Below, piece by piece: positions 4,001-7,000 of a DNA stretch of 64,000 nt. The DNA lies in the NCBI GenBank assembly GCA_965246715.1, contig CBDFFH010000022.1, forward strand, positions 32,001 through 96,000. The letters are read 5' to 3'. Source of the DNA: Chamaesiphon sp. (GTDB lineage: Bacteria; Cyanobacteriota; Cyanobacteriia; Cyanobacteriales; Chamaesiphonaceae). The translations under genes were made by a program, and so were the position numbers. Numbering within the stretch: the stretch's first letter is position 1; the number at the start of each line of letters is the position of its first letter. The notes below the pieces were generated by a model that saw only the letters and a program-made list of their open reading frames with translations, was not told the origin of the DNA and ran no database searches.

Positions 4001-7000
4001 CGCAGTTACTGACAACGGTACCGCCACCAACTATACCAGCAACAATCTCAATGAGTATACCAACGTCGGTAATGCGGTCTACACCTACGATACCGATGGT
4101 AACTTAACTAGCAAGATTGAAGGCGGACAGACTTCCAACTATACCTATGACGTAGAAAATCGCTTAGTTAAAGTGGTTTCGCCTACAGGCACTTGGGACT
4201 ATAAATATGATGGTTTAGGCAATCGTACCGCTACCATCGAGAACGGTCAACGCACGGATTATCTGGTAGATCCGACTGGATTGGGGAATATCGTTGGTGA
4301 ATACAACAACGCTGGTAATTTAGTCGCCGATTATAATTACGGGATTGGTTTAGTCAGTCGAGTAAATGGTGGTAATAGCAATTACTATGATGCCGATGCA
4401 CTCGGATCGATCGTCGGTGTGACTGCTACTGATGGCTCTTATGCGAACCGCTACAGTTACTTACCCTTTGGCGAATCCTTAAGCAAGGTTGAAACTGTCA
4501 CCAATCCGTTTGAATATGTCGGTCAATATGGAGTCACCAACGAAAGCAATGGACTCGACTTCATGCGGGCACGGTTCTACGATCCTAACCTGGGACGGTT
4601 TACAAATAACGACCCGATCGGACTAAATGGTGGTGATACGAATTTAAGTCGGTATGTAGGCAATAATCCTGTTAATTCGATCGATCCATCAGGATTGGAG
4701 ATCGGACCAACCTCGCCAGTCCCAGTTCCTAATCCTACGCCTCCACCTAGTCCTACACCTAGTCCTACACCTACAACTACACCTATAACTACACCTCCAC
4801 CTGAACGTATTCCTGACCCTATAGATCCAGATGGAATAGACATATTTCTATACTTGATAGCATTTGGAGTTTTATTATATTTGCTACCGGTAGTGACAGT
4901 GACAGTGACAGTGGCAGCCCCAGTAGTAATTATTACAACTACAACGTTGGAATTGGCGGCGGAAGAGCCGCCCAAACCTGATAGCGGCTCCAAAGGCGAT
5001 CCTCACTTCACAACCTTAGACGGCAACTACTACAACTTCCAAGGTGTTGGCGAATTCACCCTCGTCAAATCCACCACCGACGACCTCGAAATCCAAGTCC
5101 GCCAGACAAAAGTCTCTAGTGGTGCATCCGTCAATACCGCGATTGCTTTTCAATCCGGCGGACAAAAAGTTGAATTTGATGCCGGACAAAACCAAGTCAT
5201 CCTCAATGGCACCGCCACTGACATCCCCGACAAATCCCTCTTCGCCGTCGGTACAAATCTGGTGATTGCGCGAGAAGGCAAACGATACAACATCTACACC
5301 GCCAACAACGACCTGATTCAAATCGACAACAATGTCAGTTATCTCGATATCGGTGTCGGTTTAGCCGATAATCGTCTGGGTAAAGTTGCGGGACTCCTCG
5401 GCAATAATAACAACAATAGTAACGATGACATTGCCCTCCGTGATGGTACCGTCATCGGCAATAACATCACCGACGAGCAACTCTACGCCAATAGCTGGCG
5501 CATCACCCAAGCGACCTCCCTCTTTACCTACGCTCCTGGCACCAGCACGACGACATTCACAGACACCACCCCAACCGTCCCAGTCGTCATCACCCCCGCC
5601 CAACGAGCCGCCGCCGAAGCAACAGCCAGATCTGCTGGCATCACCGACCCCAACCTGCTCGAAAATGCCATCTTCGATCTAGTCGTCACTAACGATCCTG
5701 GCTATCTAGATACCTACAAAGCCGCGCAACGACAAGTCACCGTCAATGCACCCAATAGCTCTATCAACCCCGATGGTGCTGGCAGCCAATTCTGGGTCGG
5801 TGCGAATGAATTTCTACCCAATACAATCCGGTTTACCAATACCGCAGCAGCAGGCACTATTCCAGTCGGTAAAGTCGCTGTTACCCAGCAACTCGACACC
5901 GACCTCAATCTCGACACCTTTAGCTTTAGTAACATCGTCATTGGCACTACCACCGTCACCGTCCCAACAGGTGCCAAAAGTTTCAGCCAACGCCTCGATC
6001 TCCAAAGTACCCAGGGCGTATTTGTAGATATTACTGCCGATCTAGATACCACCACCCGCACCATCACTTGGACGTTCAATGCGATCGATCCAGCGAGTGG
6101 TTTACCTGTAAATATTGCCGCCAAAGGTTTCTTACCACCCGACAATGGTAATGGATCGGGTGTCGGCACCGTCGGCTATACGATCCAGCCCAAACTTGGC
6201 GGCATCACCAACACCCGTATCGACGCGCAAGCGAGCATTTCCTTCAATGGTGGCGCAGCAGTGCAAACTACCGCTGTCTTCAATACCATCGACAAAACCC
6301 TCCCAACTAGTAGCGTCAACGCCTTATCAGCCACCAACTCCAACAGCTTTAACGTCTCCTGGGGCGGTAGCGATAATGAGAGTGGCATCGCCTCGTACAA
6401 TATCTTTGTTGCTGTAGATGGCGGTGGGTATACCTTGTGGAAAACTAATACCACCGACACCTCCGGTACCTACACCGGACAAGCAGGACGTACCTATGCC
6501 TTCTACAGTATCGGCGTAGATAACGCCAATAATACCGAATCTGCCCCCGCCAGCGCAGATGCCACCACTCAAGTTATTGCCGCTGTCAACCAACCGCCCG
6601 TAGGTGCGCCGACGAAAATATTAGCTAATACCCTTGAAGATACCGCGATTACGATTAATGCGATCGATCTCCTCACAGGTTTTAGCGACCCCAATGGCGA
6701 TTCCCTCTCCGTTGCCAACCTAATTGCCACCAATGGCACCCTCGTCAATAACAACAACGGTACCTATAAATTCACCCCCACCGCCAACTTCAACGGTGCC
6801 GTCAACCTCACCTACGGCGTAACCGATGGCATCGCCACCCTCGCCGGACAAACCCGCAGTTTCAATGTCACCCCCGTCAATGACGCACCCACAGGCGCAC
6901 CGACGAAAATATTAGCCGATACCCTCGAAGATACAGCGATCGCGATTAATACAGTCGATCTCCTGACAGGTTTCAGCGATGTCGATACTGGGGATATCCT

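Follow-up and report, generated by a model that had tools for sequence, protein, structure and literature searches.

A variable internal cassette between an RHS autoprotease and an Asp-Pro motif in an RTX protein of Chamaesiphon and its relatives

A gene at the edge of a 64,000-nucleotide stretch of Chamaesiphon sp. DNA (the window, to which all positions refer unless a contig or locus is named) encodes a protein whose hypervariable segment, termed cargo here, lies in the middle of the chain, between the DPxG motif of an RHS core autoprotease and an Asp-Pro motif. Comparison with relatives identified this interval as an exchanged cassette with breakpoints at both motifs. With a probability of about 0.58, and judged from sequence, these proteins are Rhs-type capsules with an internal exchangeable cargo that leave the cell by type I export, are cut at both ends of the cargo and would act as toxins or effectors on non-self cells.

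An open reading frame on the forward strand (3..8351) represents the 3' 2782 codons of a gene for a protein of 3114 amino acids that starts about 1 kb upstream of the window (G000:C22:31007). The domain order is DUF4347, RTX repeats, helical pre-shell domain, YD shell, RHS core, cargo, VWD, DUF7619, an FN3-like domain, two Cadherin_5 domains, two Calx-beta domains and C-terminal RTX repeats. The N-terminal RTX region (1-1080 and upstream, G000:C22:31700-33080) carries near-identical tandem repeats of 180 amino acids (540 nucleotides). It is followed by a family-specific pre-shell region, delimited by alignment (1728..2492, forward strand) and comprising a beta domain, four helices that a structure model places ahead of the shell, and the start of the shell itself. 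The shell of YD/RHS repeats (2250..4457, forward strand; PF05593, TIGR01643) has Rhs shells as its top sequence and fold matches. The RHS core aspartyl autoprotease (4458..4697, forward strand; TIGR03696, amino acids 1486-1565) contains the catalytic residues R1524 (4572-4574), D1537 of DPIG (4611) and D1561 of DPSGL (4683), and their spacing of 13 and 24 residues equals that of R2103/D2116/D2140 in the bacterial teneurin-like protein BiTLP. The cut at DPxG, predicted here after L1565, is very probable. The protein thereby shares with Rhs polymorphic toxins the YD-repeat shell, a core with Arg and two Asp in the DPxG...DPxG arrangement and a hypervariable exchanged region directly after DPxG.

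Behind the core lies the cargo of 101 amino acids (4698..5000, forward strand), which extends from the end of DPSGL to the Asp of GDPH and consists of a Pro/Thr stalk, an acidic patch, a hydrophobic segment (4842-4937) and a short linker with the terminal Asp. The GDPH motif (4995..5006, forward strand) aligns with GDPH of FCGBP, is a predicted Asp/Pro autocleavage site and stands, as in self-cleaving VWDs, at the start of a Cys-free bacterial VWD domain (4992..5450, forward strand; PF00094, amino acids 1664-1816, E 1e-16), which reads GLLGNNNNNSNDD where the GLCGN..DD motif would stand. Further downstream on the same strand follow a CnaA-like Ig domain, DUF7619, with a decayed start motif (5748..6280), the two Cadherin_5/Big_9 and two Calx-beta domains of adhesin type (6585..7780; Pfam) and the C-terminal RTX repeats with their tail (7857..8348; PF00353, amino acids 2621-2655). 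In total 1116 amino acids follow the cargo, so the variable region is not the C-terminus. The only Cys residues of the window protein are at positions 55 and 128. Pfam scanning of the window protein revealed no PAAR or VgrG domain, and neither Pfam nor NCBIfam scans found an NHL family, so the FN-plug and NHL propeller typical of teneurin-like proteins are not seen.

DPIG (4611-4622), DPSGL (4683-4697) and GDPH are all in frame within one open reading frame. An earlier sequence-only reading had placed these motifs correctly and had given distances of about 100 and about 1100 amino acids, in agreement with the 101 and 1116 found. An assembly artefact or frameshift as the source of this layout was rejected, since the reading frame is intact and a contig from a second sample (X2) covers 4673-5074 without any difference. 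The structure prediction proposed at that time was run on 1200 amino acids and was informative for the shell (pLDDT mostly >80); core and cargo were left unplaced (pLDDT <50).

The pre-shell region served as marker for family membership, and its profile matches 2732 clusters (50% identity, E<=0.001). From the best 150 of these 2732 clusters, 43 further matches and additional loci, 173 proteins with the marker and a complete RHS core were obtained, of which 160 were left after removal of duplicates. A VWD or DUF7619 domain stands behind the cargo in 143 of these 160 parsed members, with VWD in 65 and DUF7619 directly in 78. The other 17 were excluded from the cargo counts owing to truncated or terminal ends, a frameshift (one) or a cargo running into Ig-like repeats (six). 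In P0092, P0103, P0104, P0109, P0119 and P0132 the variable cargo is internal and Ig-like repeats come after it, without an evident Asp-Pro. Named carriers belong to Cyanobacteriota and Planctomycetota. Complete members have 250-1800 amino acids behind the cargo, C-terminal RTX repeats were recognised in 45/143 by a crude pattern that also counts fragments, and many adhesin and lectin domains occur, the latter under Pfam accessions that we take to stand for PA14, GLEYA, C-type lectin and F5/8. The RHS pattern is intact in 134 of 143 members, and both the RHS and the Asp-Pro site in 126. A further GDPH-type motif opens an apparent second VWD far down the tail in P0013 and P0022. No match to the VWD query was found in the 26 genomes of the same genus that were searched, many of them fragmented. 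Cyanobacterial VWDs without RHS (L010-L032) are common, with matches in 48 of 401 genomes; some are in tandem and some read GDVH.

Comparison of homologues confirmed the earlier proposal of an exchangeable internal cassette. BLAST sorts the 143 cargos into 106 clusters, 94 with a single member, and several clusters are represented in VWD as well as DUF7619 backbones. Among 186 pairs with at least 85% identity over the last 250 shell residues, cargo homology is limited to 9. The window protein and its closest relative, P0003, are 93% and 98% identical in the flanks and 34% in the cargo, where the likeness is weak (4/500 shuffles). Breakpoints at the DNA level were sought in contigs only, from four public runs: in one X3 contig, 150 other letters connect 4688 to 4980, which amounts to an in-frame replacement, and X6 contigs turn unlike the window at 4697, 4974 and 4984. 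The cargo DNA had also been described as compositionally different, which applies to third codon positions (GC3 0.28, compared with 0.46 upstream and 0.55 downstream) and not to overall GC, which is not unusual at 0.468. After correction for amino acids, 28 G/C-ending codons were observed in the window cargo, where codon usage elsewhere in the gene would predict 51.2 (z = -4.7). The cargo is overlapped by each of the three 99-codon windows with the lowest values in the gene. A shift of the same direction, to fewer G/C-ending codons (z<-2), was present in 30 of 38 loci, and a shift above +2 in none. Cargo length ranges from 56 to 331 amino acids and is at most 215 in 142/143; this ceiling matches the 9-20 kDa that the accessible part of a published account gives for terminal Rhs tips (PMC8636562).

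The strongly hydrophobic stretch that the sequence-only reading had noted in the window cargo is the strongest of the windowed protein (19-residue Kyte-Doolittle value 2.45; next best outside the cargo 1.32), and this cargo is among the five most hydrophobic of the 143. A conserved interval acting as an ordinary membrane anchor, named at the time as the case against a cassette, was rejected because the cargos are hypervariable and only 68/143 have a hydrophobic stretch of at least 1.6. The window cargo is a singleton among the 143, with no Atlas match and no homologue among longer proteins; membrane activity is plausible for it, with no homologue in support.

The evidence for a cut at the other end comes from the residues that follow the cargo. 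Asp-Pro stands directly behind it in 133/143 members, comprising 56 of 65 VWD types and 77 of 78 DUF7619 types, and is supplied by VWD as [GN]DPH and by DUF7619 as DPN. That DPN takes the place of GDPH in most of the family had been overlooked before. The nine VWD members devoid of Asp-Pro read GEPH (seven), GDVH (one) or GDTH (one), and two of the nine also have a decayed DUF7619. A VWD variant with GEPH and without DUF7619 was seen in P0069, P0108, P0114, P0142, P0152 and P0186; these proteins are scattered among DUF7619 types in the shell tree, which suggests tail swapping. Where a VWD is present, DUF7619 has lost its motif: DPN is found in 77/78 VWD-less members versus 0/51 VWD members, and the window has APNSSINPDG (5748-5777) at the place of DPNDIIGPxG of VWD-less relatives. 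Two acidic residues behave likewise, the RFEN Glu being kept in 1 of 39 scored VWD members versus 64 of 71 VWD-less ones and the IxFD Asp in 7 of 42 versus 69 of 72. By the Ig topology of the structure model, the motif and both acidic residues would share one end of the sandwich. A FastTree tree groups most VWD types in a single clade of 55 rows (support 100), and as the decay of DUF7619 is mostly confined to one clade it may represent a single event.

The closest PDB match of the VWD is FCGBP (E 8e-34). In FCGBP all GDPH sites are cleaved, the pieces are held by disulfides, and the anhydride is hydrolysed with no cross-link partner found, as the accessible part of the source reports (PMC8267560). 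In the present family 64/65 VWDs are free of Cys and so lack an interfragment disulfide, and the pieces could therefore separate. Calcium-dependent Asp-Pro cleavage is known from bacterial FrpC and MIIA domains, according to the available descriptions. The only published view of DUF7619 is that of a predicted CnaA-like isopeptide domain, as far as the accessible text of the source goes (PMC12617251), and a fold search returned generic CnaA/FN3 adhesins only, in agreement with this fold. Isopeptide bonding as the reason for the DPND motif was rejected, as the Lys is present in 3/77 and absent in 74/77. On these sequence patterns, cleavage at the Asp-Pro is probable, with less certainty than at DPxG.

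The strongest alternative assumes a single cut. The RHS core would cleave after DPSGL, and the cargo would stay joined to VWD and adhesin tail and thread out of the shell like teneurin, so that a cargo-plus-adhesin fusion is released with the cargo as warhead or membrane anchor and the tail as targeting arm; Asp-Pro would then be the structural, calcium-binding start of a domain. In favour of this, GDPH is the usual start of a VWD and also opens cyanobacterial VWDs without RHS or cargo, Asp-Pro is absent in 10/143 members and in the Ig-repeat subclass, a flexible Pro/Gly/Ser/Thr/Asp/Asn linker ends 52/143 cargos, and teneurin chains leave their shell uncut in the part of the literature available (PMC13018210). 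However, a single cut leaves unexplained that two unrelated domains both place Asp-Pro behind the cargo, the second of them decaying where the first has been inserted, that every GDPH site of FCGBP is cleaved, and that isopeptide bonding fails to account for the DUF7619 motif. A single cut is considered unlikely.

Whether the variable segments are toxins was approached through the cargos themselves, and the pool likely consists largely of toxins or effectors. One cargo family, with an invariant His and Asn-Cys, has 7 members among the 143 and 24 matches among longer proteins. Most of these matches, with P0194-P0212 among them, are canonical Rhs proteins that carry the domain last after the core and end about 20-30 residues past the Cys, so that the same domain serves both as terminal tip and as internal cassette. 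We assume this family to be papain-like; weak TseH- and IcsB-like Atlas clusters at 0.88-0.89 are a lead only, and a comparison of its profile with PDB sequences led nowhere. Motifs that recur among the cargos are His/Cys, HExxH and Gly-zipper hydrophobic stretches, and for hydrophobic, membrane-damaging cargo there is precedent in BiTLP and Tse5, as far as the accessible accounts go. Many cargos are of low complexity, and none of the 50 scanned for Pfam toxin families (50/143) gave a match. The nine classic Rhs tips of the same genome, considered as cargo donors, had no BLAST match to the 143 cargos.

Alternatively, the cassette might be a non-toxic variable peptide for recognition, decoy or surface modification in a biofilm adhesin, or degenerate filler in the window protein. 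The lack of immunity genes and of Pfam toxin matches among the 50 cargos, the many low-complexity cargos and the wealth of adhesin and lectin domains would fit such a role. It is nevertheless improbable, since canonical Rhs proteins have one of the cargo families as their terminal tip, motifs of the His/Cys, HExxH and Gly-zipper types recur, the protease motif is kept in 134/143 members, which implies release, and peptides enclosed by a shell are badly placed for display.

The genomic surroundings speak to immunity. A cognate immunity gene directly downstream, as expected for an Rhs toxin, was not found at the window locus, as the sequence-only reading had held: the next gene (8458..9066, forward strand) encodes a DVUA0089-family PEP-CTERM protein and is not an evident immunity gene. 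A PEP-CTERM gene directly follows the large gene in three loci (window, L056 and L058), and these come from two different families. As L056 and L058 have similar ones beside unrelated cargos and most loci have none, an immunity function of this gene was judged unlikely. Neighbours were surveyed at 37 loci that include the end of the gene and sufficient flanking sequence, 32 of them distinct. Judged by eye, an unexplained adjacent open reading frame on the same strand was present in at most 3 of the 32, and most have a convergent, distant or presumably housekeeping-like neighbour. No orphan cassettes were found near the gene in the loci scanned. By comparison, the same genome contains nine classic Rhs genes or fragments (C21, C35, C36, C55) with diverse terminal tips, and seven of the nine have an open reading frame within about 100 nucleotides downstream, unlike the internal-cargo family. 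Two other features of the surroundings were recorded: at L001:1726-2826, upstream of the gene, a same-strand gene with a C-terminal LuxR-type HTH ends 180 nucleotides before the start and is a possible regulator, and a cluster of sugar-transferase-, acetyltransferase-, oxidoreductase- and aminotransferase-like reading frames (14854-20454) is, we presume, for polysaccharide synthesis.

The signal for type I secretion probably resides in the C-terminal RTX repeats and tail. Besides C-terminal RTX repeats in the protein, the genome has a type I exporter on contig C52, with HlyB over the cut-off and an adjacent HlyD-like gene that matches below the curated cut-off; this exporter has no link to the window gene. 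The conservation of the motifs, the size ceiling of the cargo and the HlyB/HlyD-type genes are consistent with a cut at each end, a shielded cargo and type I export. In the proposed mechanism the C-terminal RTX tail would be needed as export signal, and also for adhesion, and the cargo could for this reason not be terminal. The chain would exit with its C-terminus first and fold in outside calcium. Cleavage between Asp and Pro by VWD, or in most relatives by DUF7619, would then generate a free cargo end, with no disulfide to retain the tail, while the shell would close around the cargo and the RHS core would cut after DPSGL. In the window protein the product would be a shielded hydrophobic peptide of 101 amino acids that inserts into a target membrane. 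Because no immunity gene is kept, the target would probably be a eukaryotic grazer or parasite, or an unrelated microbe.

Covalent anchoring by the Asp anhydride at the cargo end, which would couple cargo or capsule to a surface amine or sugar, is possible, weakly supported and the weakest step of the earlier interpretation, and is regarded as very improbable: FrpC and ApxIVA-type RTX proteins do link covalently after Asp-Pro cleavage (accessible part of PMC7078468) and ITIH3 couples through the same kind of Asp (accessible part of PMC8267560), whereas the FCGBP anhydride is hydrolysed without a partner, export with the C-terminus first would generate the anhydride ahead of any encounter with a target, the Asp is not preceded by conserved residues, and a VWD stands behind Asp-Pro in the window protein in place of the SPM domain of FrpC.

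Among known systems, Rhs/YD toxins (T6SS Rhs1, RhsA, RhsP, Tse5 and Tse15; TcC) share the YD shell, the R/D/D aspartyl autoprotease, a hypervariable shell-sized cargo after DPxG and at least one tip family, and Tse5 has a membrane-inserting cargo like that proposed for the window protein. They differ in that the cargo is internal here with RTX or other C-terminal tails, PAAR/VgrG is absent from the window protein, immunity-like genes are rare and orphan cassettes were not seen. Two defining Rhs features, the terminal tip and the immunity gene, are missing, and the family is therefore regarded as a variant of the Rhs toxins and not as a member. The closest layout, and also a fold match, is mosquito SGS1 (PDB 8FJP). 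In the accessible part of its description (PMC9935623), SGS1 has about 3300 amino acids, no signal peptide, receptor domains on the shell, a hydrophobic moiety shielded inside, an RHS autoprotease cut at one end and a second cut that removes the downstream domain. It is eukaryotic, however, its second cut is made by furin in trans and not by Asp-Pro self-cleavage, and its moiety of about 300 amino acids is not presented there as a cassette that is exchanged. Bacterial teneurin-like proteins, as available accounts present them, combine adhesin domains with a YD shell of the same catalytic spacing and have a variable cargo of about 15 kDa, with one hydrophobic membrane-damaging example; they differ by FN-plug and NHL domains, Sec signals, a cargo at the C-terminus and, with few exceptions, an immunity gene downstream. 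The FrpC/ApxIVA self-processing module and NopE1/MIIA are likewise secreted bacterial proteins with calcium-induced Asp-Pro self-cleavage, which is predicted here, yet the accessible sources show other domains, no shell and no variable cargo. FCGBP, MUC2 and MUC5AC are related by VWD homology with GDPH at the domain start; there, according to the sections available, a disulfide joins the pieces, in contrast to the Cys-free VWD of this family.

A bacterial Rhs architecture with internal cargo was not found described in the open-access literature, where supplementary domain tables could list members, and the accessible text of the 2012 polymorphic-toxin survey does not mention vWD, Willebrand or T1SS (PMC3482391). 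Searches for polymorphic toxins look at C-termini and toxin-immunity pairs and would for this reason have missed this reservoir, the size of which can be seen from 106 cargo clusters among only 143 members. Taken together, and tentatively, the family may represent widespread polymorphic toxins without immunity genes, with thousands of clusters in Cyanobacteriota, Planctomycetota and other groups, that excise an internal cassette by two self-cleavage chemistries and so solve the conflict between an export signal and a toxin that both claim the C-terminus. DUF7619 would then be an unrecognised calcium-dependent Asp-Pro self-processing domain, whose function a bacterial VWD would have taken over in one lineage of cyanobacteria, and the capsules would be lectin-guided weapons against grazers or parasites. 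The finding suggests what bacterial VWD domains may do, and it adds a candidate Asp-Pro self-processing module, new and potentially useful for cutting or joining proteins, as well as a bacterial counterpart of SGS1 and teneurin, in whose layouts the chain also extends beyond the shell. For cyanobacteria and planctomycetes, it would mean a testable protein-based defence against eukaryotic grazers and parasites.
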